54,215 bases of DNA, from the NCBI GenBank assembly GCA_009780485.1, contig WQZZ01000002.1, positions 1 to 54,215 of the forward strand. The letters run 5' to 3'. Positions 14,428-47,675 of the stretch are shown here, piece by piece. Within the stretch, counting starts at the first letter, position 1. Every line of letters begins with the position of its first letter. The stretch comes from Defluviitaleaceae bacterium. GTDB lineage: Bacteria; Bacillota; Clostridia; Lachnospirales; WRAX01. The translations under genes and the position numbers were made by a program. The notes under the pieces were generated by a model. The model was not told the origin of the DNA. It worked only from the letters and a program-made list of their open reading frames with translations, and made no database searches.

Positions 14428-14455
14428 TGGAGGTGGGTATGTCATAGTCGAACAC
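14428..14455. other. attL of the ICE (core TGGAGG plus element-side arm)
   Basis: TGGAGG (14428-14433) is identical to the ssrA 3' end at 47549-47554. AGTCGAACAC (14446-14455) is the exact inverted copy of GTGTTCGACT (47525-47534). Confidence 0.6.
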
Positions 14456-14596
14456 CTAATTTACTACAAATGCAGACTAATACTCATTTCCTCATTCACC
14501 TAGTTAAAAAAGGTCAGAGATTTAATGCCCTTTCCCGCTATTGTCAAATCCCAATATTTTATCACTGGCAGAGTATTCGGGATAATTGTAAAAATA

Positions 14597-14628
14597 TAAA
14601 AAAGGCGACCTTCGAGGTTGCCTTTTTT
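14597..14628. terminator. bidirectional rho-independent terminator after the XRE gene
   Basis: A-run, GGCGACCT tcg AGGTTGCC (one G-U), TTTTTT. Confidence 0.65.
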
Positions 14629-14675
14629 ACTTGTCTTAAATCTCAAAGCAAAACCTACTGGGTGAAAAGAAAAAT

Positions 14676-14897
14676 CTATATTTGCTCACCAGTATCATTA
14701 AGAGTTAGGCTCACATTAAAAGTACATCCAAGAACCCTTGCCATCTCGTGCAATTCATTTTCTGTAAAATTATCCCTTTTTAGCTTATTGCTTAGGTTGG
14801 ATGGTGCTGTGCCTATCCCTTCCGCTAATTCCTTTAAGGTCATACCCCTCTTTATGAGGGCTATTTTTATTTTTTCTGCCATGTACATTTTGACCAT
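14676..14897 (-). CDS. XRE-family helix-turn-helix transcriptional regulator
   Basis: IKIALIKRGMTLKELAEGIGTAPSNLSNKLKRDNFTENEL is a Cro/C1-type HTH. The start may be an internal ATG (14888 or 14882). Confidence 0.8.
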   Translation of the reverse strand: MVKMYMAEKIKIALIKRGMTLKELAEGIGTAPSNLSNKLKRDNFTENELHEMARVLGCTFNVSLTLNDTGEQI

Positions 14898-15006
14898 TTC
14901 CCCCTACTCGTTGGATTTTGGATTTAGTGTAACACACTTATAAAAAATAATCAACACTTATTTTATAATTTAATATAGAATTTATGAAAAAAGTTACAAA
15001 AAAAGC

Positions 15007-15035
15007 TTGACAAAGATATAAATATAGTGTATAAT
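15007..15035 (+). promoter_or_regulatory. consensus sigma-A promoter of the J-domain gene
   Basis: TTGACA (15007-15012), 17 nt, TATAAT (15030-15035). Confidence 0.65.
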
Positions 15036-15079
15036 ATAACTATAAATCAAATTAAATAACTTAGGAGGAAACAAACACC

Positions 15080-15604
15080 ATGAAAAGAAACCAAAGTAAC
15101 ACAAAGAATTACAAATACTTCACCCCAACCCCACAAACAGCAGAAGAAACTAAAAAGATGTACAGAAAACTAGCCAAACAATATCATCCAGACAATGGGG
15201 GCGATACCCAAAAGATGTCAGAAGTAAACAACGAATATCACGAGTTATGGGAGAAACTCAAAAATGTACACGTAAACGCTAAGGGTGAGCAATACGAAAG
15301 AGAAACTAACGAAACCCCAGAAGAATTTATAAACCTAATCAATATATTAATGGGATTAGAAGGGATTGTAATTGAAATTATCGGTTGCTTTGTTTGGGTC
15401 AGTGGTGACACAAAACCCCATAGAGAAGCATTAAAAGCACTTAAATTCCGTTGGCACTCTAAAAAGCTTTGTTGGTATTTAGCCCCGGAGGATTACAAAC
15501 CAAGAAGCCGTAAGGATTACGATATGGACGAAATCCGCCATATGTACGGCACAAGTGGGGAAGTGAATAGCAACGGCATGAGCAAAATATCTGTAACGAG
15601 TTAG
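15080..15604 (+). CDS. J-domain (DnaJ-like) protein with unrelated C-terminal domain
   Basis: AGGAGGAAA RBS. KMYRKLAKQYHPDNGGDTQKMSEVNNEYHELWEKL contains the HPD motif. The C-terminus CFVWVSGDTKPHREALKALKFRWHSKKLCWY has no Zn-finger or G/F region. Confidence 0.75.
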   Translation: MKRNQSNTKNYKYFTPTPQTAEETKKMYRKLAKQYHPDNGGDTQKMSEVNNEYHELWEKLKNVHVNAKGEQYERETNETPEEFINLINILMGLEGIVIEIIGCFVWVSGDTKPHREALKALKFRWHSKKLCWYLAPEDYKPRSRKDYDMDEIRHMYGTSGEVNSNGMSKISVTS

Positions 15605-15744
15605 AAAGGGGCTTTAGGATAGAGTGGCTTAAAAGTGAAAATTATGGGCTATGCAGGTACGAAGAACTAAAAACATGATTGAGTGGCAGGGGGTGGTATG
15701 GTCTACCCCTTGCATAAAAAATAAAACTTCTTGGAGGATTTAAT

Positions 15745-16128
15745 ATGCAATCAATAGAATTTCAAATAAGCGAAATAATGAAAACAACCGAATGGAGGCA
15801 GGTTAATGACTTTTTCTGGAACTTAAAATACCCTAACCTCAATTGGAAAGATTGGCATATAGATAAAAAAGGCAAGTTAGAAATTTTACTTAATCCGCCC
15901 AATGGTGCATTTGAAACAGACTATGTGTTTGATAGTGGGTACTGTGTGAAGATTGCCAAAGAGATTGAGAAGCAACGGGCAGAAACATTTAATACTGTTA
16001 TAGAAGCTGAAATCAAACAACAGCTTGATTTTCTCGGTGTCAATAAGATTGTTTTCAAAAGCCGTGTTGTACTTACAAAATCGGGGAGTTATTCCAAAAT
16101 AATGAGCTTTTCTAGGGTTTTGGAGTGA
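15745..16128 (+). CDS. hypothetical protein (127 aa)
   Basis: TGGAGGA RBS before ATG 15745. No recognisable motif. Confidence 0.5.
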   Translation: MQSIEFQISEIMKTTEWRQVNDFFWNLKYPNLNWKDWHIDKKGKLEILLNPPNGAFETDYVFDSGYCVKIAKEIEKQRAETFNTVIEAEIKQQLDFLGVNKIVFKSRVVLTKSGSYSKIMSFSRVLE

Positions 16129-16178
16129 TTTAACGGTCTTAATGCGTTACGAAATCTAAATGAAAGTCGAAAAACTTC

Positions 16179-16207
16179 TTGACAATACTATAAATTTATA
16201 GTATAAT
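16179..16207 (+). promoter_or_regulatory. consensus promoter with an embedded palindromic operator for the toxin-antitoxin pair
   Basis: TTGACA (16179-16184), 17 nt, TATAAT (16202-16207). The spacer contains the perfect palindrome CTATAAATTTATAG (16188-16201). Confidence 0.65.
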
Positions 16208-16230
16208 ACATTATGAGGGGAGGAAATACA

Positions 16231-16560
16231 TTGAATATCATAAATTACGAAACATCGGGCGGTAAAGATTTAATACGTGAATATATTAATGACCTGCCCA
16301 AAAATGAGAAACTAGAATTTTTTGACATCATAATAACCATAGAAGAAGATGGATACCCAGCCCTTAAAAACATCAACACCAGACATCTAATGGGCAAAAT
16401 GTGGGAAATAAAATTCTCACAAAACCGCATAATGTATATAGTGGCTGATGCTGATAACATTTATTTCCTCCACGCTTGCAAGAAACAAAAAGGCAAGGCT
16501 GAAAAATTTGAGCTTGAAACAGCCGTAAAGCGAGCTAAAGAGTTTGGATTAAAAGTTTAA
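16231..16560 (+). CDS. type II toxin, RelE/ParE superfamily (phage Gp49-like / HigB-like)
   Basis: ETSGGKDLIREYINDLPKNEK ... MWEIKFSQNRIMYIV ... FLHACKKQKGKAEKFELETA matches the Gp49/DUF891 pattern. TTG start at 16231 follows GGAGGAAA; the track start is 16213. Confidence 0.65.
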   Translation: MNIINYETSGGKDLIREYINDLPKNEKLEFFDIIITIEEDGYPALKNINTRHLMGKMWEIKFSQNRIMYIVADADNIYFLHACKKQKGKAEKFELETAVKRAKEFGLKV

Positions 16561-16613
16561 TAAGGGTTAATCATTTATTTAACTTGTTATATTATAGTGA
16601 AGGAGGGCTTTTG

Positions 16614-16922
16614 ATGCCTGGAAGAAAAGTTGACATTGACGAAATCAAAAGGGAAAGGCAAGAGTTAATTAATTCTGACCCCGAATTGGCAAAAGCTTCG
16701 GAGGAATGGAACAAAGAATATGTATTCCGCAAAAAACTGACGCAAGCCCGCAAAGAAGCAGGACTTACCCAAAAAGAGCTTGAAAATCTTTCTGGGTTAG
16801 ACCAACGCACCATCAGTCGCATGGAGATTGACGAAAAAATCAGCCCTAGCATTAGGACGCTGATTAAGTATCTAGGTGCTTTGGGGTATCAATTGGATAT
16901 TACCAAAGCTACAGCAGAATAA
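16614..16922 (+). CDS. XRE-family HTH antitoxin (HigA-like)
   Basis: GAAGGAGGG RBS before ATG 16614. LTQARKEAGLTQKELENLSGLDQRTISRMEID is an HTH. Lies immediately downstream of the Gp49-like toxin. Confidence 0.65.
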   Translation: MPGRKVDIDEIKRERQELINSDPELAKASEEWNKEYVFRKKLTQARKEAGLTQKELENLSGLDQRTISRMEIDEKISPSIRTLIKYLGALGYQLDITKATAE

Positions 16923-16928
16923 TTTCAT

Positions 16929-16956
16929 GGGACGGTCAACCCGTCCTTTTTCTTTT
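16929..16956 (+). terminator. rho-independent terminator
   Basis: GGGACGG tcaa CCCGTCC followed by TTTTTCTTTT. Confidence 0.8.
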
Positions 16957-17262: not shown

Positions 17263-17300
17263 GAAATTAAAAATTTTGGTCTAAATGAATGTCTTAAAAT

Positions 17301-21727: not shown

Positions 21728-23437
21728 TCAGTCCTCCCCCTCATCGTCATACCCAATCCAAGCAAATATAAATGGATTAAAGTGTGTCCTATTACCAAGA
21801 ACATTTGCACGAATAACCTCAAAATGCAAATGTGGTCCCGTGGATGCTCCTGTGCTACCTACCGTGCCGATGGGGTCGCCCATTTCTACTTCCTGTCCGA
21901 CATAGACAGATATTTCGTGTAAGTGGGCATATCTGGTATGTATCATATACGGCAGTCGTGGAGGAAATAACCTTGCGGGTATATAGTGAGTTATTTCTAT
22001 CCAGTTACCAAAACCACCTGCTTGATATTCGGCTCTAGTAACCGTACCGTCTTGACTGGCTATAACTGGCGTGCCTGTAGGTCTGGCTATGTCTATTCCA
22101 CGGTGCATCTGTCTTGTTCCTGTAAACGGGTCTAAACGCCACCCAAAGCGACTGGACACGAACCCATCCCAGCGGAAGTCGAAGGGCGAACCTACAAACT
22201 GGCGGTTGCCATGCCCCATTTCCAAAAACATATCAAAATGTTCTTCTTGGTCTGCACCTTCTTCGGTGTCTGGGTTTGTAGCAAACATCTCCCTGAAAAT
22301 ATCTTCCATGGATGTTGTGTCAAGAAATATGTAAATGAAATGCCATTCGTATTCAATGATGACGGTTTCTTCCCATTCAACCCATACCATATATGAAATC
22401 CAATGCTCACCACCGTCACCATCGTATTCATACCATCCGTGGTCTTGGTATTCACCGAAGGTCATAATTACTGTTTGAGTTCGTATTTCGTAGAATGTTT
22501 CGGTTGTGATTTGGTATTGCATATCTATCATTGCAAATATTGCTGGGCGTATTTGCGGATAGAATATTTGGTCGTGGAGAATCGCTGTAAAACCTGACAA
22601 TAGCATATGGGGGCAGTGGTTGATTGCTTGGATTAAAGGAGTAACCAATATTCTAATGGCATCCCCTCCGAAAGTTTCCCCTATTGTGACAGCACCATCT
22701 TCTAAAGTCCATTGGGAGGCAAGGCGGGCTTGTTCGCTACCATTCAAGAATGATGCAGCTTCATTAAAACCAGAAACGTCCATGCTTAATAGGTACTCCT
22801 TTATCTCAACCTCACCTTCGGTATAGGCTATGGTTGTGTTGTTTAGGTCGTCATCATCAGCAAGAAAGCTGGTTGCAGCGATTATCGTTGCAAAGCCGAT
22901 AATCATTGATATAATGGCAAGGACTACGATTATGGCTACCACCGCCATCACAAGAAACCCAAGAACCATTAAAACATAGGGGTTGGTAAGGGATGCTTGT
23001 CCTAACCTTCGGAGCATCCTGCCAACACCCCGCAATGATAGTCTAAACCAGTTGCGGGGGTTAAACATATGGATGCTGGAGGGATTAAGGGCAATTCTTG
23101 CCCTTTGTTGAACCATACGCATCTTTGCCTTACGTTTCATTGCCATTCTTGCCTTTTGCACTTCTTGGCTTGACTTGCCGAATTTGCTTTCAAGTCCTGT
23201 AATCCTAGATTTATCACGGCTATCCCTAAGCTTCATGCCAAGGTTTTGCCCAGCAGACCTGCCAACCCTATAGCCTTTTCTGGTGGTATTTTGACCATGC
23301 TTTGCAAAGTCATCTTCTTCATCGCCTGTGTCGGGCATACCGCCAGAAAGGGTGGTTCTGGATGCTTGGGATATGAAGTTTGAGAGGTAGGGGGAGGTTG
23401 GGGTTATTTTGTTATCATTGTCATTACTGATTTTCAT
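21728..23437 (-). CDS. membrane-anchored M23-family metallopeptidase (conjugation cell-wall hydrolase)
   Basis: Central TM region (PYVLMVLGFLVMAVVAIIVVLAIISMIIGF). C-terminal M23 motifs HRGIDIARPTGTPV ... GSTGASTGPHLHFEV. Confidence 0.85.
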   Translation of the reverse strand: MKISNDNDNKITPTSPYLSNFISQASRTTLSGGMPDTGDEEDDFAKHGQNTTRKGYRVGRSAGQNLGMKLRDSRDKSRITGLESKFGKSSQEVQKARMAMKRKAKMRMVQQRARIALNPSSIHMFNPRNWFRLSLRGVGRMLRRLGQASLTNPYVLMVLGFLVMAVVAIIVVLAIISMIIGFATIIAATSFLADDDDLNNTTIAYTEGEVEIKEYLLSMDVSGFNEAASFLNGSEQARLASQWTLEDGAVTIGETFGGDAIRILVTPLIQAINHCPHMLLSGFTAILHDQIFYPQIRPAIFAMIDMQYQITTETFYEIRTQTVIMTFGEYQDHGWYEYDGDGGEHWISYMVWVEWEETVIIEYEWHFIYIFLDTTSMEDIFREMFATNPDTEEGADQEEHFDMFLEMGHGNRQFVGSPFDFRWDGFVSSRFGWRLDPFTGTRQMHRGIDIARPTGTPVIASQDGTVTRAEYQAGGFGNWIEITHYIPARLFPPRLPYMIHTRYAHLHEISVYVGQEVEMGDPIGTVGSTGASTGPHLHFEVIRANVLGNRTHFNPFIFAWIGYDDEGED

Positions 23438-23469: not shown

Positions 23470-23853
23470 TTATTGTGCTGATGTAACAATCCCTAAAAGC
23501 TTACTGACTTCTTTGGATAGTGCAACATAATCACCCCGCAAAGTATCCACATCCTTCAAAAGCATGGGCTGTTGACTGTTTACTGCCCTTGCAATCTGAT
23601 TAAGGTTGTTAGTGGCGTTTGACAGCAGAAATGTTAGTTGATTTATGCTGGATAAATCAATATCCAAGATAAAGCCTTGGTTTATTATCTCTCTGATAAA
23701 GTGGGAGCGATTTTTAGCCCCCACCTGTGCCATTCTCTCTAACAAAGCGGTTTTTTCTTCATCAGACATATATACCTTGATGCAATGTTGCTTGGTTTCG
23801 GGTTTTGTATCTGGCTTGGTTTCATGCTTTTCGCTTGACTTAGTTTCCATCAT
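23470..23853 (-). CDS. mobC: MobC-family relaxosome accessory protein
   Basis: IKVYMSDEEKTALLERMAQVGAKNRSHFIREIINQ (RHH-like) and NNLNQIARAVN are MobC hallmarks. Start at ATGATG 23853/23850 overlaps the upstream stop. The track N-terminal extension to 24153 is a shadow frame. Confidence 0.7.
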   Translation of the reverse strand: MMETKSSEKHETKPDTKPETKQHCIKVYMSDEEKTALLERMAQVGAKNRSHFIREIINQGFILDIDLSSINQLTFLLSNATNNLNQIARAVNSQQPMLLKDVDTLRGDYVALSKEVSKLLGIVTSAQ

Positions 23854-25282
23854 CAGCATCCATATCAACATCGGCATCTTCTGAATGGTAATCATGCTCG
23901 TTTTCGTTGTCATCGTCATGGCTACCGTGTTCATCATCGAATAAATCGTCTGCACTTTCTGGGTCGTTGCGGTCTGAATGGGTGTGGTCTTCTTGGTTGT
24001 TGGTTTCTTGGTTGGAGTTGTAATGACCGTCAGCATCACCATCGCCCTCATAATGACCACCTTCACCATCGCTTTCAAACTCATCCCCAAAATCACCGTC
24101 AAACTCATCACCGAAACCATCTTCACCATCGACAAAGCCACCAACTCCAGCATTACGCTTTTTCTGGCGGGATTTAATCATAAAGAAAAATCCAATGCTC
24201 ATAGCACCCAGCATAACTAGCAAAGATACAGCACTCATGCCGACCCTGCCACTGCCTGTATCGTGATATATGACTTCTTGACCAGTAACAACTTGAATCT
24301 GTTGACTATTGGCAATACCCGCCCCATGTCCAGCTTGTATGCCACCAAATCCTAACATTCCGCCTTGCTGTATGCTGGCTTCGTCACCAGCTTCCCAAGC
24401 TAAAGACATTAAATAAAATTCTGTAACAGGGGCTAAGAAATATACATTGTCTGCATCTCTTGCCCTGTCTATGATTAGAAAGAATGTATTACCTGCTTGG
24501 CTGTTAATTGTAATGAACTCCATATCTCCTACCATGATAGTGTCCACTAGCTCACCGCCACCGTCTGGGGTTAGTGGGCTTGGGGTTTGCTCTGTTCTTG
24601 GTAGAATTACTTGACCGTTTGTTGTGGGTAGGTCTGGTAGGTGTCGGGGTTCTGACTGAGTTACGTTCGGCTGTATATTATTGTTATCAGTGTCATTATT
24701 ATTGTTGTAGTCATCATAAGCACCGTTGTTTTCCCATTCGGATGAGGTAATGCCAAGGGCATCAAAAAACCACTCTGGAGGCAATTCGTCTGGCAGGGCT
24801 GATGTTTCTGCTTGGTATGTTACTCCAGTGGATGCTTGGGGGATGGAATTATCTGTGGTTGCTGTGCTTGTAGTGCCTGCACCGTTACTGAGTTGTCCAT
24901 TTGACACAGATGCTTGACTATTGTTTTCAAGACTTGATACAGGGGTAATGGACAAGATGTTTAATGGGGTGTGGTTTATGGCATTGCGTCCATCACTTGT
25001 GCTGTTGACGTTATTGCTGTCATTGTAGGTGTTTTGTTGGGAAGTATTAGCCTCCAAACTTTCGCCAAAAACTACCAACGAAAACGAAAGCGATAACCGT
25101 ACGATAAGCCAACATACCAAAAACATAATTGACAGAGCCGTTATAACCCCAAAAACGCATACTTTGGTTTCCTCTGATGTTGTTGCACGTTTTAATGTTG
25201 CACGTTTTGATGACGGCATTGCAGATACCATCGGAAATCTCGATATGTAAGTGTTAGTTGAATATTTGTCATTTTTAACCAT
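23840..25282 (-). CDS. DUF4366-like (CD1107-family) membrane-anchored mobile-element protein with acidic/His-rich tail
   Basis: AGGAGGAAG RBS and N-terminal TM. Core EFITINSQAGNTFFLIIDRARDADNVYFLAPVTEFYLMSLA is the DUF4366 signature. Second TM, then a D/E/G/H-rich tail. Confidence 0.65.
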   Translation of the reverse strand: MVKNDKYSTNTYISRFPMVSAMPSSKRATLKRATTSEETKVCVFGVITALSIMFLVCWLIVRLSLSFSLVVFGESLEANTSQQNTYNDSNNVNSTSDGRNAINHTPLNILSITPVSSLENNSQASVSNGQLSNGAGTTSTATTDNSIPQASTGVTYQAETSALPDELPPEWFFDALGITSSEWENNGAYDDYNNNNDTDNNNIQPNVTQSEPRHLPDLPTTNGQVILPRTEQTPSPLTPDGGGELVDTIMVGDMEFITINSQAGNTFFLIIDRARDADNVYFLAPVTEFYLMSLAWEAGDEASIQQGGMLGFGGIQAGHGAGIANSQQIQVVTGQEVIYHDTGSGRVGMSAVSLLVMLGAMSIGFFFMIKSRQKKRNAGVGGFVDGEDGFGDEFDGDFGDEFESDGEGGHYEGDGDADGHYNSNQETNNQEDHTHSDRNDPESADDLFDDEHGSHDDDNENEHDYHSEDADVDMDADDGN

Positions 25283-25596: not shown

Positions 25597-28500
25597 TTAC
25601 TTGGTTGCGACAGCACTTTTGCGACGTTTGACTAAGATTAAGGTTGATAAACTTGCCATAGCGACAAACCCTATAGCTGTAAAGATTGTTGTAAAAGTGT
25701 TGAAAGTGTCGTCTGTTTGAGGGTTGGTAGTTGCTGTGTCGTTTGGCGTTATTACTAATTCGTCTGCTGTTTCGTCATCATCTTCATAATCGTCATATGG
25801 TGCAGGTGCTGATTGCTGTAGACCTACTGGCTCGTCAGCCGTTGGTGCAGGTGCTGATTGCTGTGGTTCTGCTGGTTCGTTTACTACTGGAGTTGGAGCA
25901 TAAACGGCTTGTTGAGGTGCGTTTGGCTCGTATACCGTTGACTGCTCTGGTTGTGGGGTCTGGTTGTTAGTTTCTGTGTCGGGTGCGGTGTCAGGTTGCT
26001 GTGGAGCTTCGGGAGTTGTTTGCGGTGGAGTTTGGTTGTTGTCGTAGTCGTTATCGTCAGTGTCATCATCACCATTATCATCATAATCTCCACCGCCTGC
26101 ACCATTATCATCACCAATATCTGGCTCATCTACTGGCGGTTGTGGTGTAGGACGCTCTATTGGTGGGGTGGTAACGGGTAGCTCTGGTACATACCAAACA
26201 GCTTTCAGAATAGTATGACCATTAGCGAAAACGCCACCACCCATAGCAATGACTTCCACGTCCTCATTAGACATCGGTGTGTAGGTTGTACCCACTACCC
26301 TCCAGCCAAGGAAAATACGGTTAGCTTCGATGCTTTCCATGAAGTTGGCTTTAATGTCAGATTTGGTAACGTCTTTACCGTAATTGCTGATGCCCATGCT
26401 ACCTACAATTCCATTGTAAGAGCCGTAACCATCATTACCATTGTCGGGGTTAGTGTTATTATCGCCACTATCGCCACTATCTGGGTCTGCATCATAATCA
26501 CTCCCCAAATCAGGAACAACAAACCCACCCAACTCATAAAGTGAGCGTCCCTGCCTTAGAGTCGCACTTGCTACATCATCACCATCAACAACAAAGGTAA
26601 CATCCGCTTGCCAGACAGCATAAAGGCTAGTGGCTGAATTGATGTTTGTTGTAGGTGACAATGGCGTGTCGCCGTTAGGCTCATTGCTCCAGTGTACAAA
26701 CTCCCAATTGTTGTTATGGACTGTCGGTATACTCGGAAATCTCTCATTAAGAGGATTACCAAGACGAATACCACGGCTTAGTGGTTCTCCACTGGGTAGA
26801 CTAGCTAGACCACCTAAACCAGCATCGAAGTTGATAACGGCATACCATTGTGCAAATAACACAGTAGCATGAGGGAACATATAACTGGAGTTAGGGTCTA
26901 TAGTGATACCACTACCATCCATGCGGGTATTCCATCCAAGGAAAGACACACCTGCTGGAGCAGTAATTAATGGGTCGCCACCTGTGTTTGCAATACTGTT
27001 AGGGAATTGGACATAACGGGTGTAGCTATCCTGTCCATTAATAACACCTTGCACTTGAACCATGCCATAATCATCAATGACGATTGCTGGTCCGAAACCA
27101 CGGTGGAACATGATGCCTGTGTTTGCTACCCATTGAGCAAAGACTGTGGTGTTTTGTGTCATTACAGTAGTAGCATCAAACCAATGTCCTAGGGTGTCAT
27201 CTCCTGTTATGTGAGTATGCCAGCCAATAAAGGTGTGACCAAACAGCACTGGGGCTGGTAGTGACAAAGGTGTGTTTGGTGTACCAACGGCTTGATGGTT
27301 ATTAGCAATGGTTCTGCCAAGCATCACTTCTTGGGTGGTGATAAGATTACTTTGGTTAGGGTCTTGGGAATTGCGGTTATCGTTGAATGTAAGTGTACCA
27401 CCCCAAGTAGCATAGATAGTCGGTCCACCTATAATCCCCGCTTGTGCATAAGTGCCAGGGAAACTAGCACGCCCTAAAGTCCCTGTAAAAAACGAACCAG
27501 AACCATCAGGAGCTAAGTTCCAACCCATGAAGCGATAACCTACTCTTGATGTAATACCAGCTTGTCCTGTAGATACTGGGAAGTGGAAGAAACCACCACC
27601 TACATTTGGACCTACCCAGTTCATTATATTGTTGTGGGTGTTGTGGGTGTAGTTACCATCTGCAAGGTGAGGTTGTATAGCCCATGGAATAACATTAGGA
27701 TTATAAGCAACAGGGTTTGTCGGGTCTCCAGCGAACACATTTCGCACAAAGGTGTTACCCCTGTTAATATCAGTCCCACCATTAGGGTCAAACTGGATAT
27801 ACATTGCAGGTCTAAAACGTGCTGCTAGATGAACACCACCAATAGGCATTTGCCCATGTACGTTGTTATTACTTGTTCCTCTAAATCCTAACCACGCTGG
27901 TAAAGACCAGTTAGGATTTAGTTCTGGTTGGATTGGTCCTAGTTGTACTCTTATACGCTCGCCAGCTTCATCTAGCACATATTCACCCATGGCATCCAGC
28001 AAATAGGGTAGGTTTAGAGTGCCAGGAATGTCATCCACATACCAACCCATAAAGATATAACCTAGTTTAACTGGATGGGCTGGCATCTCGCCTACATTCA
28101 ACATACCTGTGCCATTACAATTGATTGTAAGTGGGTTATTTGTACCTCTATAAGATACAGGTACATTGGCAGTGTTGTTGGTATTCATATAACCATGACG
28201 GAAATCCTCTGCACCCCTTCTCCAAATCGCCCCCTCTGGGAGGTGGAAGGTAACAGATGAAGATGTTTCTACTTCTGCCCATTGTGCGTAAAGGTGTAGA
28301 CTTTGAGTAATAAGAAGAACATCATTACCACTTATGGATGTATTCCAATCAGCAGATGTGAATGTACCATCCGAAGCTACGTTTATTACATGGTCTGGAT
28401 GATAAATACGTTCAACGCTTGGGTGACTTAGGTTTGCTTGGACTGTCCAGCCTAAGAACTCTCTGCCTTGCGGACTTTCCAAAGCAGGAAGCCCATAACG

Positions 28501-30606: not shown

Positions 30607-31170
30607 TCAAAATCCTTTTGCAAGAACAAACCGATTAAATTCTGGACACAATCCAAGACTTGCCATTAAAGCCCTATTAAATTTGTTACCAGCTTTATTT
30701 AGGCTACGTATATACCCAACTTTGTGTCTAAAGACAGATTTGTCCAATGTATGAACCTGCTCGAACTGGACAACGCTGGTTTCAAAGCGGTCAAAAGACC
30801 TCATATTCTCGAACTTTATGTCACGTTGATTTATGTAAGCGTGGGTTGGCATATGGGGCTTTTTGTCTGTTGATGTGATGATTGCCACAATCACAGTGGG
30901 AGCGTAGTGGTTGCCTATGTTGTTTTGTAGGACTAGCACAGGGCGTACACCGCATTGACTACTTCCTATGGTTTTGGGGATGTCGGCGAAGTATATGTCA
31001 CCTCGTTTGTAGATTGCGGTTATGGGGTCGAGAATTGTGTATTCTGGTATTACGTAGTTAGGTTTTTTATGGGTAGACTTTGAAACGTCATATCTTCTTT
31101 GGTATTTTCTCATGGGGTCATTTCGCCCCCTCCTTGTCTTTGTTTGGTGCATTGTTTTCAGGTTTGTCAT
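30607..31170 (-). CDS. MazF/PemK-family endoribonuclease toxin with a basic N-terminal extension
   Basis: KRGDIYFADIPKTIGSSQCGVRPVLVLQNNIGNHYAPTVIVAIITS ... SVVQFEQVHTLDKS aligns by eye with B. subtilis EndoA/MazF. Start is 31170 or ATG 31113; either leaves at least 35 extra N-terminal residues. Confidence 0.8.
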   Translation of the reverse strand: MTNLKTMHQTKTRRGRNDPMRKYQRRYDVSKSTHKKPNYVIPEYTILDPITAIYKRGDIYFADIPKTIGSSQCGVRPVLVLQNNIGNHYAPTVIVAIITSTDKKPHMPTHAYINQRDIKFENMRSFDRFETSVVQFEQVHTLDKSVFRHKVGYIRSLNKAGNKFNRALMASLGLCPEFNRFVLAKGF

Positions 31171-34224: not shown

Positions 34225-34798
34225 GATGCACCTCCTTTTTACTATGATTTGTTTGCACTTGTTTTGATAATGGTATGATTATCGGTGGTTTTGTTGCTGG
34301 TGGTTTTGTGGGGTGTTGGTTTTTGTGTGGTTGATGGATGGATTTAGATTGAGGTGTGGATTGGGGTTTAGGTTGGGATGCGGAGTGTAATGGGGGTTTA
34401 GGTTTGGGTATGGGTTGGGATGTAGACTTGGATTGTAAACTAAGTTTGTGCTGGAATTGGGGTTTGGATTGCGGGTTAGGTCGGTGCGTGGGACTATTCT
34501 TCTTGAAACTGCGTGAAGAAGGAAACAGCCAAAACCGTAACTTTAGCACCATCATCCTTTCCATGGATAGTCCTTCCCTTTTGTTAAATCCTAACATAAT
34601 AATGGGTATTACCACGAATATTACAATCCAAGCCGCACCAACGATGCTGATGCCGAGTAATCCAGTTGCTATTTGATAGGCTATAAAGCCAGCACCAAAG
34701 GCAATGGCTAGATATATCCATTGTTTTTTGGTTAGTATTCCAGTTTTGACTTTCATTTGGTCTAGGTCTTTGGGGATTGAGATGTAATTGTCTTCCAT
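34064..34798 (-). CDS. PrgI-family (TcpE-like) small T4SS membrane protein with a long P/Q/K/S-rich tail
   Basis: First ~100 aa carry two TM helices (LTKKQWIYLAIAFGAGFIAYQIATGLLGISIVGAAWIVIFVVIPIIMLGF) in the standard position upstream of VirB4. The tail overlaps the virB4 start by 161 nt. Confidence 0.6.
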   Translation of the reverse strand: MEDNYISIPKDLDQMKVKTGILTKKQWIYLAIAFGAGFIAYQIATGLLGISIVGAAWIVIFVVIPIIMLGFNKREGLSMERMMVLKLRFWLFPSSRSFKKNSPTHRPNPQSKPQFQHKLSLQSKSTSQPIPKPKPPLHSASQPKPQSTPQSKSIHQPHKNQHPTKPPATKPPIIIPLSKQVQTNHSKKEVHHAPSHKNNTTNPKKPSKPQGSEPQKPTKLQTATTQQKPTTPVPKTTTNQPTAN

Positions 34799-34858
34799 GT
34801 GTTTTCATCCTTTCTTGGGTGGTTTGTGGTTTGGTTGCTGTGGGTTGGTTTAGGTTAG

Positions 34859-35752
34859 TTAAGATGCTCCGAAGATGCTTTTTGATATTTGTTGGGTTTT
34901 TAGGAGAAGGATAATCATCATAACCGATACACCTGCATAAACGAACATCATCATTCCAATCCCTTCTGCGGATGGAGTTATAGGAATGAGTGCCATTGTA
35001 GCACCATTAAGAACGAGTACCATTATCATCAAAAACCCTTGGAAAGATGTTGCCACCAATGTTTTTATATAGTTATTGCCCACGCTACTCCATTCCCTGT
35101 TTATCAATGTTGCAAACGGGATTGGGGCAAGTGACATTTTCATCAAAATCAAAATCATTCTGTAAATCACAATAATCATAATTATCATCCGACAAGCCGT
35201 CATAATAAAACCCAAAAGAAAGCTGGTTATCCATAGAGAAGACAAAGTGGTTATAAAATAATAATTCCTAAGATTGTCTTCTAAGGCATCAAGCATTATA
35301 TCAAAATTTAGAGCCTCAATACCCATGCCTTCTTGTGCGAGGGTTACAGCTTCTGCACCTATGCCAAAAATCCAATTGACTATAGGAAATACATTAGTTA
35401 AGAGAAGTACGCCAATGAAGACCTTTACAAGCCACTTGAAAAGATGAGTGTAATCAAAATCCCTAAGTGTATTACCCTCTGACAGCATAGACATGAACTC
35501 ATATCCCACAATTAAAGCGAAAGCCACAAGAGCAATCGGCAAAATGGTGCTGTTAGCAAAATTTTCTATTATCCCAAAATGGTAGCCACCCAAAAAGTTT
35601 TCTGGTGTTTGAGCTAACATTTGTGCGGACTGCTCCACTTCATTTTCCCAATTAGCAAAAGCGTTTTCAACATTACTAACGATGCCTTGTATTAAGATGT
35701 CTTCTATCTCTGCAATGATGTCGTTGAATATCCTTTGTATAAAGTCCCCCAT
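34859..35752 (-). CDS. VirB6-like polytopic T4SS membrane protein (CD0415/CD1112-type)
   Basis: N-terminus MGDFIQRIFNDIIAEIEDILIQGIVSNVENAF followed by 5-6 TM helices, positioned between Maff2 and PrgI. Confidence 0.55.
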   Translation of the reverse strand: MGDFIQRIFNDIIAEIEDILIQGIVSNVENAFANWENEVEQSAQMLAQTPENFLGGYHFGIIENFANSTILPIALVAFALIVGYEFMSMLSEGNTLRDFDYTHLFKWLVKVFIGVLLLTNVFPIVNWIFGIGAEAVTLAQEGMGIEALNFDIMLDALEDNLRNYYFITTLSSLWITSFLLGFIMTACRMIIMIIVIYRMILILMKMSLAPIPFATLINREWSSVGNNYIKTLVATSFQGFLMIMVLVLNGATMALIPITPSAEGIGMMMFVYAGVSVMMIILLLKTQQISKSIFGAS

Positions 35753-36104: not shown

Positions 36105-37844
36105 TCACACAGTAGATTTATGTATTTTTGCTTGTGTGTTGTTTTTGGGCGGAACTCTCGCCCTTGGTCTGGGTGTTGCTTTTTGTTGTCGGGGTTTGGT
36201 GTTGCTACCCTTACTAGGCTTCTTTATGCCACCATTCATCATCCTATATACTGGATGTGTCGTCACATCAAACTTATCCGATAAAAACGGTGGAACACCT
36301 CTAAGGATTAGCAGACACTTGCCCCCATCCAGACGAGCCAGCTCGTCAGCAGTCATAAGTTCACGCCCAGTCTTTTTGTAACTTTTGCTAAAAGACCCGC
36401 TTTTGCCTTTGGTTTCAGAATTGTCCATCATGTCAATGGTTTCTTTACCCATAACTCTTGTGAGGTATTTAAGCGTTTCTTCATCGTCACCGCCAAGGAA
36501 AAGCTTTGTATCACAGTTGCCAATAATTGTGTTCATATGTTCTTTGTATACGGCTTTTAGTTGGCTAAGGTTTTGCAGTATTATACAGGCTGATATTTCA
36601 CGGCTTCTAATGGTGGCAATGAGCCTGTGAAAGTTAGGTATTTTGCCAAGATTTGCAAACTCGTCCAAGATACAGCGGACGTGGACTGGTAATCTTCCGT
36701 CACGAAATCTATATTTGCTCTCTGCACGGTTTACGAGAGTGGAGAACATTTGAAAGTAGAGCATGGTTGCTATAAAGCTGTAGGTGGAGTCCGTATCATC
36801 TGTAATAACGAAAAGGGCAGTTTTTCTATCGCCTATAGTTTCCAACTTCATTTCATCTTTTTCCATTACATCCCTAACCGCTTGGATGTCAAACACTGCA
36901 AGGCGTACACCGCATGAAATGATGATAGATTTTAGGGTCTTGCCAGCACCTTGCTTGAATTTTTTATATTGCCTTACAGAAAAGTCATCTGGGTACAGGT
37001 CTTCTATTCTCTCAAACTCTCTATCCACCATACTTTTGTAGTTCTCGTCCCCTTCTTTAACTTCCATGCTTGTAACCATTTCAACTAAGGTGTTCATGTT
37101 GTGCATGGTTTTGTCCTTTACATGAAATTTGATATATGCTATTAAAGCCATATACAAAAGCTTTTCGCTTTTTGTCCAAAAGTCTCCGTCATCACTGGAT
37201 TTAGTGTTTTCTGTAGTGCTACTCTGTAGAACATTTACAACTCGCAGTATATCGTCCTCGGTCTTTATGTAATCAAAAGGATTATAGCCCATAGAAGCAC
37301 CGAAATCCTTTAGGTTAAGCACACGCACGTCATATCCGCCCACCTTCTCCAAGACCTTACCTAGTGAATAAAAAAGCTCTCCTTTGGGGTCCGTTATTAC
37401 GTATGAGCTGTGCATTTGCATTATATTTGGGACGCAGAAGAAGCGAGTTTTACCAGAGCCAGCACCGCCAAATACCAGCATATTTTTATTGCGTCCATAC
37501 TTGGGGATGTCTGGTCGGCTGTTCATTGTTAGACCTTCTGTGGCAGTTAGGATTACATTTTGTCTGGGGTTTGTGTCCATGTATGGTTTCATGTCCTCAG
37601 ATGTACCCCATCGGGCAGAGCCGTGTTCTATACCACGTCTATATTTACGCTTGTCTTTACCCATGACCCTAATCGACACAAAGGCGGTGGCGGTTGCTCC
37701 AGCTAGAATGAAGTTATTGAACTGCACTAATTGCAGGGTAAAGTTGATATAAAATACCACAAAGGCAACCATTGCAAATATTATGGCGTTTGATATTATT
37801 TCTCTTTTTTGTTTTTCTTTTTTGTCTGTGGTTATGGTGTACAC
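36105..37844 (-). CDS. VirD4/TraG-type type IV coupling protein
   Basis: N-terminal TM helices, Walker A VFGGAGSGKTRFFCVPN and Walker B-like region ALFVITDD. Basic C-terminal tail. GTG start is uncertain. Confidence 0.9.
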   Translation of the reverse strand: MYTITTDKKEKQKREIISNAIIFAMVAFVVFYINFTLQLVQFNNFILAGATATAFVSIRVMGKDKRKYRRGIEHGSARWGTSEDMKPYMDTNPRQNVILTATEGLTMNSRPDIPKYGRNKNMLVFGGAGSGKTRFFCVPNIMQMHSSYVITDPKGELFYSLGKVLEKVGGYDVRVLNLKDFGASMGYNPFDYIKTEDDILRVVNVLQSSTTENTKSSDDGDFWTKSEKLLYMALIAYIKFHVKDKTMHNMNTLVEMVTSMEVKEGDENYKSMVDREFERIEDLYPDDFSVRQYKKFKQGAGKTLKSIIISCGVRLAVFDIQAVRDVMEKDEMKLETIGDRKTALFVITDDTDSTYSFIATMLYFQMFSTLVNRAESKYRFRDGRLPVHVRCILDEFANLGKIPNFHRLIATIRSREISACIILQNLSQLKAVYKEHMNTIIGNCDTKLFLGGDDEETLKYLTRVMGKETIDMMDNSETKGKSGSFSKSYKKTGRELMTADELARLDGGKCLLILRGVPPFLSDKFDVTTHPVYRMMNGGIKKPSKGSNTKPRQQKATPRPRARVPPKNNTQAKIHKSTV

Positions 37845-37896: not shown

Positions 37897-38424
37897 TCAC
37901 GCATTTACCGTTGTTCCGTATGCAAGGAAAATGACAATCGTTAATACACTCAATATCAATATAAGTCTTATAATCGGCATGAAATATCTACCGTAAATTC
38001 CCCGAAACACCCACAAACCACCTTTCTTTCCTTTCTTGCCGTTACAACGAACACAACAGGCAACTAGATTTGAAATGTGGTTGACCCCATCGGGCAGGGT
38101 TTTGAAATGCTCCCTCAAATGCTTGGTATACTGCACCCTGCGGATGGAATGGATGTGGTCAACAACGATTTTAGGCTTGTCCCACATGACACGCCCGCAG
38201 TATGGACAAAAGTATAGACTTTCAAAGGCTTTGTTCGGGAATACTTTCAAAAGGAAGCCTTGTACGGAGGGTGGTATTTGCCAACCCTTATCATGCTCGA
38301 AGTATCGCCGTCTGTAGTCGTGACTACGTTTTAGGGTCTTTGTTCGTTCTATGTAAGGTTTTTTATTCACGATGTCCACCTTGCTCATGTGACCCAGCAG
38401 GTTTTGTATGAGTAAGTTGACCAT
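37897..38424 (-). CDS. HNH endonuclease with a C-terminal transmembrane anchor
   Basis: CPYCG ... VVDHIHSIRR ... NHISNLVACCVRCNGKKG gives the HNH/Zn-finger pattern. C-terminus FMPIIRLILILSVLTIVIFLAYG is hydrophobic. No clear RBS. Confidence 0.65.
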   Translation of the reverse strand: MVNLLIQNLLGHMSKVDIVNKKPYIERTKTLKRSHDYRRRYFEHDKGWQIPPSVQGFLLKVFPNKAFESLYFCPYCGRVMWDKPKIVVDHIHSIRRVQYTKHLREHFKTLPDGVNHISNLVACCVRCNGKKGKKGGLWVFRGIYGRYFMPIIRLILILSVLTIVIFLAYGTTVNA

Positions 38425-39296: not shown

Positions 39297-39827
39297 TCAA
39301 AATGGTAAATTATCATCAGCGAGGCTGTTATCAACTTCATAAAAAGTATCGTTGGGCGATGTGTCGTCTTGGCTTTGGCTTTGAGGTTGGGTGTGAGATT
39401 GACTTTGGGGATTGGAATTATTATCACTTTGTGAAGAAGAAACATCAGTATCGTTTTGGTTATTGTTGGCACTTTCATTTCTGCCCTCAAAACTAGCACG
39501 GCTTTCTGCAAAGAAATGTTCGTTGGTGATTACCTCTGTAACCCAACGGCGATTACCTCCTTGGTCGTCATAATTACGCACCTGTATTCTTCCAACAACG
39601 CTGACTAATTGTCCCTTTTGATAGAACTTTGCAACAAACTCCGCATCCTTGCCGAAGCAAGTGCAGTTGATGAAGTCAGCGGATTGTTCGCCAGCATCTT
39701 TTCTTTCACGGCTTATTTGCCTGTCTACAGCTAAAGTGTAGCGAACTACAGCAATTGGATTTGCTCCTGCACTGTAACGTATTTCTGGGTCACGGGCTAG
39801 TCTGCCCATTAGGATTATTTTGTTCAT
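39297..39827 (-). CDS. ssb: single-stranded DNA-binding protein
   Basis: MNKIILMGRLARDPEIRY ... OB fold, Q/S/N-rich linker and acidic tip DDNLPF. Confidence 0.9.
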   Translation of the reverse strand: MNKIILMGRLARDPEIRYSAGANPIAVVRYTLAVDRQISRERKDAGEQSADFINCTCFGKDAEFVAKFYQKGQLVSVVGRIQVRNYDDQGGNRRWVTEVITNEHFFAESRASFEGRNESANNNQNDTDVSSSQSDNNSNPQSQSHTQPQSQSQDDTSPNDTFYEVDNSLADDNLPF

Positions 39828-44318: not shown

Positions 44319-44340
44319 AGACTTTAAGAGGGTGAGAAAA

Positions 44341-44865
44341 ATGTATCAACGAATCAAAGAGGTTCGCAAAAGTACGGGCAAGACGCAAAAAGTTTTCGGT
44401 GAGTCCTTGGGGGTTTCTCGTGAAACTCTGGCAAGTTATGAAATTGGGCGTGTTACACCTAGTAAAACATTTCTGCAACTACTTTGCACAACCTACCGTG
44501 TGAATGAAAAATGGTTATTGTCTGGTGATGGTACGATGTTTACCGAAACCAAAGAAGATGCCATAGACCGTTTCGCAAGCGAACACGGCTTGACATTTTA
44601 CGCCAAAAAAGTATTACAGAGCTATCTTGCACTTGATGCGGGTGGACGTGAAGCGGTGGATGGTTGGTTACATAGTTTCGTGGAATTAAGCAAAGAGGAG
44701 GTTGGTGAAGAAATTAATCCAAACGTTACTTCTATTCTGACTCCCACACTAAAAATAGAAGCGGAAGCACAGGCTGTAGCTAAATTTGCTCACGATGAAT
44801 ACATAAGAGAAAAAAGTGGGGCATCCCCAGCATCTTCCTCTACAGGCTTAAAGCAGAAGGGGTAG
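44341..44865 (+). CDS. XRE-family HTH regulator with a ~110-aa C-terminal domain (candidate ICE repressor)
   Basis: IKEVRKSTGKTQKVFGESLGVSRETLASYEIGRVTPS is an HTH. ATG 44341 follows AAGAGGGTGAG. Divergent from the transfer operon. Confidence 0.75.
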   Translation: MYQRIKEVRKSTGKTQKVFGESLGVSRETLASYEIGRVTPSKTFLQLLCTTYRVNEKWLLSGDGTMFTETKEDAIDRFASEHGLTFYAKKVLQSYLALDAGGREAVDGWLHSFVELSKEEVGEEINPNVTSILTPTLKIEAEAQAVAKFAHDEYIREKSGASPASSSTGLKQKG

Positions 44866-44936
44866 GGGATTGGGTGATTGATTACATTAAACTAGCAAAA
44901 CAAAACAATTTTATGTAGTTTATGGAGGTAGGTTTT

Positions 44937-45284
44937 ATGGAGTTAAACAAAGTGAGAAAAATCATTTCAACTACAGTGTTGACAATGCTTTTGGTTCTGG
45001 TTTTGTCATCTTGCGGAGGAAACCGAGCCATTGTAGGTACTTGGGAAATAGTTGAAACAAACCAAACGCTTAGCCGTGTCGGGGATAGAACAATCCTCAA
45101 TGCCGATGGAACAGGGAGGTCGAGAGGTTCTGGTTTTAGGTGGCACGTAGACGGTGATTATTTAGTGACAAACGTACCATTGTTCGGTAATATGTACGAA
45201 AGATTTGAATTAGAGGGCAATCGTTTAACGGTACACCATGATGATAGGGGTCGAAGAATATCGGTGTTTGAGAGAGTAGAATAA
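44937..45284 (+). CDS. small lipoprotein (lipocalin-like GTWxI start)
   Basis: GGAGGTAGG RBS. Signal peptide with lipobox LVLSSC-GG, and the mature part begins NRAIVGTWEIV. Confidence 0.65.
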   Translation: MELNKVRKIISTTVLTMLLVLVLSSCGGNRAIVGTWEIVETNQTLSRVGDRTILNADGTGRSRGSGFRWHVDGDYLVTNVPLFGNMYERFELEGNRLTVHHDDRGRRISVFERVE

Positions 45285-45306
45285 TTATTTTAAGGGCGGA
45301 TGGAAT

Positions 45307-45831
45307 ATGATAAAATTTATTATTTTTGGAGGATTAGCTCTCATCACCTTAATTGTTTTAGTCATAATACTAGGGTACAGAGCCATATTACCTTTCATTC
45401 CTTACTTAGCTGTACTGTCAGCCGTATTATTTCTTGTGTTTGACACAATCTCGATTACCACAAACAGCGGTAGTATTGTAGTGCTGGGATTAGGTCTATT
45501 TCACCAACTACTACCGTATGACATTAATGCTTTTCTTGGACTAGGATTTATCGCCGTAGTATTAGTTGTTACTGGATTTATTTGGTATAAAGTGCAAAGG
45601 ATACATATTAAGCTAGTAACCCGAAAAGGTTTTTACCCAGCCAACATTATTGTTTTCGCTATCCTTGGACTTACCGTAGCTCATATTGTGAGGGTAGTAT
45701 ATTTTACCGAAGCCAGCCCCGCCAACAACCACAACCACGTAATTATACCCATTATTGCGGGAATTTCAACATTCCTAATTCTATCCTTTTGCAAGAGATT
45801 GGAACGCAAGTATTGGAGGATAACTAGATAA
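45307..45831 (+). CDS. polytopic membrane protein, unknown function
   Basis: Five or six hydrophobic helices. No motif. Confidence 0.55.
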   Translation: MIKFIIFGGLALITLIVLVIILGYRAILPFIPYLAVLSAVLFLVFDTISITTNSGSIVVLGLGLFHQLLPYDINAFLGLGFIAVVLVVTGFIWYKVQRIHIKLVTRKGFYPANIIVFAILGLTVAHIVRVVYFTEASPANNHNHVIIPIIAGISTFLILSFCKRLERKYWRITR

Positions 45832-45910
45832 ATTATCCCCCTATTCTCGAGACCCCAATGATTGATATAGCTAAAATATTTTGGGATGAGTAAAAGATAA
45901 ACAACAAAAA

Positions 45911-45937
45911 ACCGCCCTTGCTACAACAAGAAGCGGT
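45911..45937 (-). terminator. minus-oriented hairpin plus T-run upstream of the recombinase gene
   Basis: Minus strand reads ACCGCTTCTTG ttgtag CAAGGGCGGT followed by TTTTTTG. No minus-strand gene lies upstream other than ssrA. Confidence 0.4.
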
Positions 45938-46028
45938 AAATAAATCACGAAATGCACCACATCAGAATAATACATTTCCACGCCCCTATTATACCACCCT
46001 TCGGGCTGGAATGGAAGGGGTAATTTTT

Positions 46029-47675
46029 ATGAGTGAAAAGTTACATGGATTAAAAGCCGTTATCTATGCCCGCTACAGCTCCAATAATCAGTCGGAGCAA
46101 TCCATCGAAGGACAATTAAGGGTCTGCCAAGAGTTTGCCGAAAAGCACAAAATGACAGTTGTTGGACACTATATTGACCGTGCCATCAGTGGTACAACAG
46201 ACGAGCGGGAAGAATTTCAACGGATGCTAAAAGATTCCGATAGAAAATTGTTCGGAGCTGTCATTTGCTATAAAATGGACAGATTTTCCCGCAACCGATA
46301 TGATTCTGCTATTTACAAGGCAAGACTAAAAAAGAATGGCGTAAAAATTTGCTACGCAGCAGAAGCCATTCCAGATGGTCCAGAAGGCATAATTTTGGAG
46401 TCTTTGCTTGAAGGTATGGCTGAATACTATTCAGAGGAACTATCCCAAAAAATACGCCGTGGACAACGTGAATCAGCTTTGAAATGCAAGCACATGGGAG
46501 GCAAGCCACCACTGGGGTATAAAGTTACAGATGAAAAGAAATATATCCTTTGCGAAGTCACTGCCCCATTGGTTGTAAAAATTTTTAATATGTACGATAC
46601 TGGTATACCCGTCATTGACATTTGCAATGAACTAACTGCAATGAACACAAAGACTGGTATCGGTGGCATTTGGAACAAAAACAGTTTGCGTAAGATTTTG
46701 AAGAACCAAAAATACATAGGAATTTACGAAGCCAAAGGGGTTCGTGTGGAAGGTGGTGTACCATCAATCGTGGATATAGAACTTTTTAAGCGTGTACAGG
46801 AGCGTGTGGAGATAAACCGAAAAGCCCCTGCAAAAGGTCAATCTGAAAAGGCTGATTTTTTATTGACAGGCAAACTCTACTGTGGCAAGTGCCAACAAGG
46901 TATGCTTGGTATCAGCGGTAAAAGCAAGAGTGGTAAAGTCCATTATTACTACACCTGCGGTAATAAGTGGCGACACAAAACCTGTGATAAAAAGAATGTG
47001 CGTAAGGATTGGTTGGAAAATTTCGTTGTAACGGAAACGGTCAAACATATACTACAACCCGATAAAATAAATATTATCGCCCAGCGTTGCGTGGAAATCC
47101 ACAAAAAAGAGATGTCAGACGACAGAGAGTTGACCTACTTGAAAAATCAACTTGCCGAAACCCAAAAAGCCCTTAATAATCTTATGACAGCAATCGAACA
47201 AGGTATAATCACAAAATCAACTAAAGCCCGCCTTGCAGAGCTAGAAACAGCAACCGAAAAACTAGAATTTGAAATAAACTTGCAAACCACCCGTCAACCC
47301 CAGCTAACAGAAAGACACATCATCTTCATGCTGTCACAATTCCTACGTGAAACAGACGCAGAAATCGAAGAATATAACAGAGATGTGATTGAAGCCTTTA
47401 TTGACAAGGTTTATTTGTATGACGACAAGATAATAACCACCTATAATTTAACAAAAGAAAATTCCGAGCTTGACAGCACGGAACTCGCTTTGGTTTGTGA
47501 TGCTGATTTGAAAGGATTTTCTGAGTGTTCGACTTTAGAACACTTACATGGAGGCGAGGAGAGTCGAACTCCTGTCCGAGAACCAGTCCACGAGGACTTC
47601 TTCCATCATAGTCAGTTTCGGAATTTCCCCCGCACACAGAAAACTGACAAAGCTGTGTGCGGGGTAGCTACTTAA
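46029..47675 (+). CDS. large serine recombinase; the last ~39 codons are read from antisense ssrA
   Basis: KAVIYARYSSNNQSEQSIEGQ (catalytic Ser), recombinase domain, Zn-ribbon CGKCQQG ... YYYTCGNKWRHKTCDKK and coiled-coil. ATG 46029 follows GGAAGGGG. Confidence 0.9.
   Translation: MSEKLHGLKAVIYARYSSNNQSEQSIEGQLRVCQEFAEKHKMTVVGHYIDRAISGTTDEREEFQRMLKDSDRKLFGAVICYKMDRFSRNRYDSAIYKARLKKNGVKICYAAEAIPDGPEGIILESLLEGMAEYYSEELSQKIRRGQRESALKCKHMGGKPPLGYKVTDEKKYILCEVTAPLVVKIFNMYDTGIPVIDICNELTAMNTKTGIGGIWNKNSLRKILKNQKYIGIYEAKGVRVEGGVPSIVDIELFKRVQERVEINRKAPAKGQSEKADFLLTGKLYCGKCQQGMLGISGKSKSGKVHYYYTCGNKWRHKTCDKKNVRKDWLENFVVTETVKHILQPDKINIIAQRCVEIHKKEMSDDRELTYLKNQLAETQKALNNLMTAIEQGIITKSTKARLAELETATEKLEFEINLQTTRQPQLTERHIIFMLSQFLRETDAEIEEYNRDVIEAFIDKVYLYDDKIITTYNLTKENSELDSTELALVCDADLKGFSECSTLEHLHGGEESRTPVREPVHEDFFHHSQFRNFPRTQKTDKAVCGVAT
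47525..47554. other. attR of the ICE (element-side arm plus core TGGAGG)
   Basis: GTGTTCGACT (47525-47534), 14 nt, TGGAGG (47549-47554, the last 6 nt of tmRNA read in antisense). Confidence 0.6.

Follow-up and report, generated by a model that had tools for sequence, protein, structure and literature searches.

Reviews of bacterial mobile elements credit insertion at the 3′ ends of tRNA genes to tyrosine integrases and insertion within genes, which disrupts them, to serine recombinases (2017 review of integrative and mobilizable elements [IMEs]; PMC5704250); according to the paper on the island-finding tool Islander, likewise, tyrosine integrases alone were known to act at tRNA and transfer-messenger RNA (tmRNA) genes, together called tDNAs, and serine recombinases were not (PMC4383910). 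A described exception comes from Dehalococcoides, in which islands at ssrA, the tmRNA gene, use a CcrB-like serine recombinase, DsiB, whose gene extends across the junction into antisense ssrA (McMurdie et al. 2011, PMC3146451). A model for site recognition by such enzymes is that of the LI integrase, whose zinc-ribbon domain reads a motif at half-site positions 16–24 in attP and 11–19 in attB; this 5-bp shift sets the geometry of the coiled coils and hence the direction of the reaction (Rutherford et al. 2013, PMC3783163). Here we describe an element that abuts ssrA in a Defluviitaleaceae bacterium (contig WQZZ01000002.1 of assembly GCA_009780485.1). The window analysed is the whole stretch of 54,215 nt (positions 1 to 54,215 of the contig, forward strand), and all coordinates refer to it unless another contig is named.

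We put at roughly 0.88 the probability that positions 14434–47554 are an integrative and conjugative element (ICE) inserted at the extreme 3′ end of ssrA by its own large serine recombinase (LSR), with the attachment-site geometry set out below.

Boundaries and Empty Allele

A first-pass annotation, made from the letters of the window, had placed the ends of the element at two copies of TGGAGG (14428–14433 and 47549–47554) and had read the second as the antisense of the tmRNA 3′ end; the sequence and two RNA-gene predictions agree with this. ARAGORN identified a tmRNA on the minus strand at 47549–47891, with the tag DNNDYAFAA, and Rfam model RF00023 confirmed it (156 bits over 47546–47891); the gene is 58–62% identical to the seven tmRNAs of related loci that were fetched. 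These boundaries make base 47549 the discriminator, with no encoded CCA, so that the right TGGAGG is antisense to the discriminator and the final five bases of the ssrA acceptor stem. Checking of coordinates also bore out the proposed dyad: the 10-mers AGTCGAACAC (14446–14455) and GTGTTCGACT (47525–47534) repeat each other exactly in inverted orientation, and both lie 16 nt from an axis that falls between TG and GAGG of the core.

The hexamer alone is not significant (15 copies on the plus strand, 8.6 expected). When ends are joined through the core, the 14428/47549 pair gives the best symmetry among the 100 TGGAGG pairs lying more than 1 kb apart; the reconstructed site of 52 bp is symmetric at 17 of 26 positions and has a perfect outer run of 10 nt, other pairs giving runs of 5 nt or less.

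An empty allele was found through the BlaI-like protein that adjoins ssrA. It is carried by a metagenome contig (L088; Ga0136643_10094071, Joint Genome Institute [JGI] sample 3300010369) whose nt 1–63 match window 14371–14433 at 100% identity and whose nt 58–3904 match window 47549–51395 at 99.92% identity, the two matches overlapping in a single TGGAGG. Because L088 joins both flanks through one TGGAGG, the ends are fixed and the element comprises 33,121 bp, with the core counted once, in keeping with the earlier estimate of about 33.1 kb. The junction predicted for the empty site, ...GGAATAACTGGAGGCGAGGAG..., which had been suggested as a check, is contained in this public contig, and the same junction places the module of XRE-type regulator, J-domain protein and HigBA pair inside the element, as annotated. 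The L088 junction was presumably spanned by reads, since a k-mer assembly could not have made the join from an overlap of 6 nt.

The occupied left junction is present in a second contig of the same JGI sample (L085), which matches the window at 100% identity for 12 kb; occupied and empty alleles therefore coexist in that sample. Three single-nucleotide polymorphisms (SNPs) in 3.8 kb separate the empty allele from the window, so that it comes from a sister strain and does not represent an excisant. When the left flanking protein, the BlaR1-like protein of the right flank or the J-domain protein was used as the query, occupied copies only were returned, 100% identical to the window where aligned. 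Exact-pattern scans of metagenome_contigs for the empty junction and the left arm of the element returned 0 hits, which is uninformative, as that collection lacks sample 3300010369, whose contigs L085 and L088 carry the patterns.

Recombination and Transfer Functions

Element genes were identified from precomputed Pfam matches and one profile scan of 10 proteins. Between the ends set by L088 lie genes for a relaxase (PF03432), a coupling protein (PF02534), a VirB4-type ATPase (PF19044) and an LSR, the combination by which an ICE is recognized; with a VirB6-like protein, a PrgI-family protein, a cell-wall hydrolase, a primase and a single-strand DNA-binding protein (SSB), the predicted gene content is that of a complete Gram-positive-type ICE.

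The LSR, at the end of the element next to ssrA, is the only Resolvase-domain protein in the element and its sole recombinase, in line with the first-pass view of a serine-recombinase element. It has the domains Resolvase (PF00239), Recombinase (PF07508) and Zn_ribbon_recom (PF13408). Across 20 LSR homologs, residues R15, Y16 and S17 and cysteines C285, C288 and C319 are invariant, and C310 is kept in at least 90%. Since tyrosine integrases are used by most ssrA islands (PMC4383910), the locus might have been a classical tmRNA island with such an integrase elsewhere or lost and the LSR as a passenger. No match to a tyrosine integrase (Phage_integrase) is on record for any called element gene, nor was one found among the 10 scanned proteins; the repeat is of 6 bp and not a 15–45-bp tDNA fragment; and the LSR gene overlaps the junction, as its homologs do in many genomes. 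A passenger LSR is extremely improbable on this evidence.

None of the reading frames for conjugation or recombination is broken. This, together with the 99.92% identity of the occupied and empty flanks and the presence of both alleles in one sample, argues for recent movement, and the element is probably still active. It would instead be a fixed relic, no longer excising or transferring, if the polymorphism reflected an old divergence of strains; that no circular form was found is consistent with a relic, as is the origin of the empty allele in a different strain, 3 SNPs in 3.8 kb from the window. We consider a relic unlikely, though it retains some weight.

Geometry of the Attachment Sites

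Half-site positions are counted outward from the axis within the core. The same motif occupies positions 17–24 in both arms of attP, in the P arm as GTTCGACT and in the P′ arm as AGTCGAAC, and positions 12–19 in the ssrA half of attB, where it is the T-loop of the tmRNA and lies 5 bp nearer the centre than in the attP arms. The inward shift is absent from the chromosomal half of attB, which has the attP-type spacing. By analogy, the placement of the motif appears to match the LI-integrase model closely, and the zinc-ribbon domain of the LSR would read both the arm motif and the T-loop. An LSR-type symmetric attP had been proposed from the dyad; the arm motif found throughout the family and the 5-bp shift relative to the T-loop, as the LI-integrase model would have it, strengthen that proposal. 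The sequence shared by attP and attB is the 6-bp core only, and no longer 3′ tDNA fragment is repeated. The circular attP is predicted to contain the junction ...CACTTACATGGAGGTGGGTATG... / ...TTAGAACACTTACATGGAGGTGGGTATGTCAT....

These features suggest how integration would proceed. An LSR dimer would bind the attP of about 52 bp through GTTCGACT motifs at positions 17–24 of both arms; the conserved half of the partner site would be the acceptor and T-arm of the tmRNA, the T-loop supplying the same motif at 12–19. Strand exchange would take place at GG, the likely crossover dinucleotide (14429–30 and 47550–51), two bases beside the discriminator that correspond to tRNA-like positions 72 and 71. 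An element that enters in this way would need to carry only 6 bp of identity with its target and would leave ssrA intact.

The recombinase gene itself crosses the junction. Its frame, as integrated, runs past 47549, and its last 42 codons are antisense ssrA; in the excised circle the product is predicted to have 531 amino acids (aa), as against 548 integrated, with a different tail. Conservation of the protein stops near ...YNLTNE...; beyond it come a variable stretch and then the brief block (C/G)S(D/T)L...GG. The terminus of many homologs reads ...GG(D/E)x(S/N)RTPV, of which (D/E)x(S/N)RTPV is translated antisense tDNA; because the tail translates antisense tDNA, the terminal conservation is at the level of DNA, first the attP arm and then the target.

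A promoter-like site lies upstream of ssrA on the minus strand (47923–47951), and the terminator that trails ssrA in the empty site (14284–14303, minus strand) is 33 kb distant in the occupied state. It may be speculated that read-through from ssrA, antisense to the LSR gene when the site is occupied, could act as a brake on LSR expression.

Relatives at the Same Nucleotide

A scan of one genome per species gave 552 relatives, of which 80 were kept. Relatives of 45–77% identity occupy tmRNA or tRNA genes at the very same nucleotide, and do so in both orientations. Four loci (L004, L007, L014 and L092) have antisense tmRNA directly against the LSR 3′ end, while the neighbour is tRNA-Asn in L009 and tRNA-Met in L016; in L092 (P0005, 66% identity) the order is LSR, antisense ssrA, smpB, rnr. 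In all six, GTTCG(A/G/T)NT stands exactly 14 nt before the discriminator base. Because the distance from the T-loop to the acceptor end is fixed in tRNA-like domains, the crossover would fall at positions 71–72 in every relative, whether at a tmRNA or a tRNA gene. This geometry would explain why insertion leaves the gene undamaged and why targets are frequently switched among tDNAs.

About 45 more distant loci have GTTCGGAT, 14 nt and T(C/G)CACCA, followed by a terminator. In ten of them (L037, L043, L046, L052–L055, L064, L065 and L073) a tRNA-Glu, tRNA-Leu or tRNA-Ala gene lies 5–9 kb upstream, and ATCCGAAC comes 10 nt after its ...CACCA end; these ten are small elements of 5–9 kb that share the tDNA position but lie in the opposite orientation, with both arms present as GTTCGGAT/ATCCGAAC. 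L057 has the opposite-orientation layout at a tmRNA, and its contig shows the tmRNA-side arm AGTCGAAC only. The arms co-vary, being GTTCGACT/AGTCGAAC in the window and in L015 and GTTCGGAT/ATCCGAAC in the tRNA-end group, as would follow if a single protein domain read both arms.

On the 2.2-kb contig L015 an LSR 3′ end is followed, at 1494–1550, by an attP-like arrangement of GTTCGACT, 32 nt and AGTCGAAC, possibly the junction of a related element in circular or tandem form.

The loci bear on whether the insertion is transposon-like, the hexamer being a target-site duplication of 6 bp and the 10-mers inverted repeats in subterminal position. A duplication would look alike, with one TGGAGG in the empty site and two in the occupied one. 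Relatives, however, insert at the same tmRNA or tRNA nucleotide and carry the core in the recombinase-side arm; L015 has both arms joined with the core between them; the inverted repeats of the window lie 12–14 nt inside the ends and are not terminal; and no DDE transposase match is on record for any called element gene, nor was one found among the 10 scanned proteins. A transposon-like origin is accordingly very improbable.

Two loci were noted beside the tDNA cases. In L089, the locus of homolog P0003 and part of an assembly with a neighbouring European Nucleotide Archive (ENA) accession number, the homolog lies at a tDNA-like site, TGGAGGTGGCGATGGTTGAACC, at 11515–11570 in the 3′ end of a chemotaxis-receptor gene; there was no conjugation gene among the element genes within 10 kb upstream of the recombinase. 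In L006 (Caproicibacter fermentans EA1) the LSR abuts, at 5910–5960, only a fragment of about 26 nt resembling the ssrA 3′ end, and the 10 kb retrieved past this fragment gave no tmRNA gene.

An attP-type Arm in the Chromosome

The chromosomal half of attB holds an attP-type arm, GGGTTCGGATTT, 16 nt from the axis and with the motif at positions 17–24, in both the occupied and the empty allele (L088 nt 32–57). It is the top match to the family arm matrix in the whole window, scoring 20.7 versus 14.1 for the next, and in alignment it falls into register with the LSR 3′ ends of several loci, L004 and L006 among them. Given the attP-type spacing of this half, the empty site is formally attR-like. 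The arm is probably the fossil of an earlier, related ssrA element, in which case the present element would have integrated, formally, into an attR-like site. A tblastn search to the left of 14402 found no fragment of an older recombinase. A second match to the arm motif, at 50103, is part of a terminator hairpin, has no core at the right distance and was set aside as chance.

Several observations weigh against insertion by the LSR with the geometry proposed. The attP-type spacing of the chromosomal half makes the target a P/B hybrid, which the coiled-coil model predicts to be a poor substrate for integration. The spacer between arm motifs is 31 nt and not 32 in the opposite-orientation relatives, so that the symmetry is inexact in the family as a whole. 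P0003, which at 77% identity is the closest homolog, lies in a chemotaxis-receptor gene end and not at ssrA. No directionality factor was identified, the small genes at 44937–45831 upstream of the LSR not being assignable, and there is no circular junction or read-level evidence of excision, an exact-pattern scan of viral contigs for the circular junction having returned 0 hits. 

Other Features of the Element

The features of the locus are collected in Table 1. A MazF/PemK toxin gene is located within the transfer operon, and a HigB/HigA-like pair at the left end of the element. The large protein with Listeria-Bacteroides repeats may have a surface or adhesin role, and the genes directly upstream of the LSR (44341–45831) are candidates for a regulator or directionality factor.

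Table 1. Attachment sites and genes of the ssrA-associated element, in window coordinates (HTH, helix-turn-helix)
Feature	Position	Strand	Evidence
Chromosomal (distal) half of attB, attP-type arm GGGTTCGGATTT; GTTCGGAT at 14406–14413	14402..14427	+	arm matrix, L088
Left TGGAGG core; probable crossover dinucleotide GG at 14429–14430	14428..14433	+	sequence, L088
P′ arm of attP, left end of element; AGTCGAAC at 14446–14453	14434..14455	+	half-site positions 17–24
XRE-type HTH regulator, 73 aa	14676..14897	-	Pfam HTH_26, HTH_3
J-domain (DnaJ-like) protein, 174 aa	15080..15604	+	weak PF00226 match
HigB-like (Gp49) toxin (16231–16560) and HTH antitoxin (16614–16922)	16231..16922	+	PF05973, PF01381
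Relaxase, 492 aa	20169..21647	-	PF03432
Peptidase M23 cell-wall hydrolase	21728..23437	-	PF01551
MobC/NikA-like accessory protein (23470–23850) and CD1107-like conjugation protein (23840–25282)	23470..25282	-	PF19514, PF21983, PF14283
1597-aa protein with Listeria-Bacteroides repeats	25597..30390	-	PF09479, E = 1.5e-16
PemK/MazF-type toxin	30607..31170	-	PF02452, E = 3e-21
VirB4-type conjugation ATPase, 930 aa	31432..34224	-	PF19044, PF01935; PF03135 sub-threshold (16.8 bits, cut-off 21)
PrgI-family protein (34064–34798) and TrbL/VirB6-like protein (34859–35752)	34064..35752	-	PF12666, PF19478
Type IV coupling protein (VirD4/TraG type)	36105..37844	-	PF02534 (E = 6e-65), PF12696
HNH endonuclease gene, adjoining the coupling protein gene	37897..38424		
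SSB	39297..39827	-	PF00436
DUF3991/Toprim primase-like protein, 840 aa	40930..43452	-	PF13154, PF13155
HTH_3 regulator (44341–44865) and two small proteins of unknown function (44937–45831), directly upstream of LSR	44341..45831	+	
LSR, 548 aa as integrated	46029..47675	+	PF00239, PF07508, PF13408
P arm of attP, within the recombinase 3′ coding end; GTTCGACT at 47527–47534	47525..47548	+	half-site positions 17–24
Right TGGAGG core; probable crossover dinucleotide GG at 47550–47551	47549..47554	+	discriminator and last 5 nt of ssrA acceptor stem
ssrA (tmRNA), intact; T-loop AGTCGAAC at 47562–47569 (+ strand), attB half-site positions 12–19	47549..47891	-	ARAGORN, Rfam

Comparison with Known Systems

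The first-pass annotation had called a serine-recombinase ICE at ssrA unusual. This holds only in part, being overstated in view of the Dehalococcoides precedent (PMC3146451) and of a clade of LSRs that is common at the ends of Clostridial tmRNA and tRNA genes. The element is a variant of two kinds already known, the serine-recombinase ICE and the ssrA-specific serine-recombinase island; the family-wide geometry at tDNA ends and the attR-like empty site are the parts that most merit attention. In the literature on serine integrases at ssrA or tRNA genes we found the Dehalococcoides case only, and neither the Clostridial clade nor the T-loop reading is described there, which is weak evidence, as coverage was incomplete.

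A serine ICE is here mapped to single-nucleotide precision at ssrA, and dozens of related elements lie at the same tmRNA or tRNA nucleotide in gut and rumen Clostridia, which narrows the textbook rule. Tools that rely on a displaced tDNA fragment, such as Islander, would miss such elements. We lean somewhat toward a broader proposal, at odds little better than even: that the Clostridial LSR clade uses the conserved geometry of T-loop and acceptor as a ready-made attB half-site, with crossover at 71–72, and so inserts without damage in either orientation, switches easily between tmRNA and tRNA genes and tolerates almost any other half, a fossil arm included. If this is true, the rule that tDNAs are targets for tyrosine integrases alone would fall, and the exception would have a structural reason. 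The attachment geometry offers sites for genome engineering that are portable and can be tested, and one of the attB halves is conserved in almost all bacteria; the attR-like empty site, for its part, is relevant to the control of directionality when elements accrete at a single hot spot.

With the Dehalococcoides islands the element shares an LSR at ssrA, the overlap of the junction by the recombinase 3′ end and a variable C-terminal tail of antisense ssrA. Those islands, from Chloroflexi, are non-conjugative and mobilizable, have a second small recombinase, DsiA, and an ssrA repeat of 20 bp, and are inserted in the T-loop; the present element, in contrast, has one LSR, a 6-bp core at the acceptor end (positions 71–72) and a full conjugation system (DsiB being compared here by its published description). 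The Dehalococcoides islands also accrete in tandem beside ssrA, with which the reading of the chromosomal arm as a fossil is comparable.

The integrases of the LI and A118 phage type (PMC3783163) have the same set of domains, an imperfectly dyad attP of about 50 bp, short identity with attB and the 5-bp shift. Unlike in those systems, the target is the end of a structural RNA gene, left undisrupted, and not a protein-coding gene, and only one half of attB follows the model.

The serine ICEs and IMEs of Firmicutes (Streptococcus elements and the Tn4451/Tn5397 group; PMC4701971, PMC5704250) resemble it as Gram-positive conjugative or mobilizable elements with very short repeats; they disrupt protein-coding genes (rumA, mutT, hsdM, traG) or have low specificity, whereas this element occupies a tDNA 3′ end. 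With the classical tDNA islands (PMC4383910), finally, it has in common the target gene, which is left intact, and the position of the integrase gene beside the tDNA, but its enzyme belongs to another family, and it restores no 3′ gene fragment beyond 6 bp.

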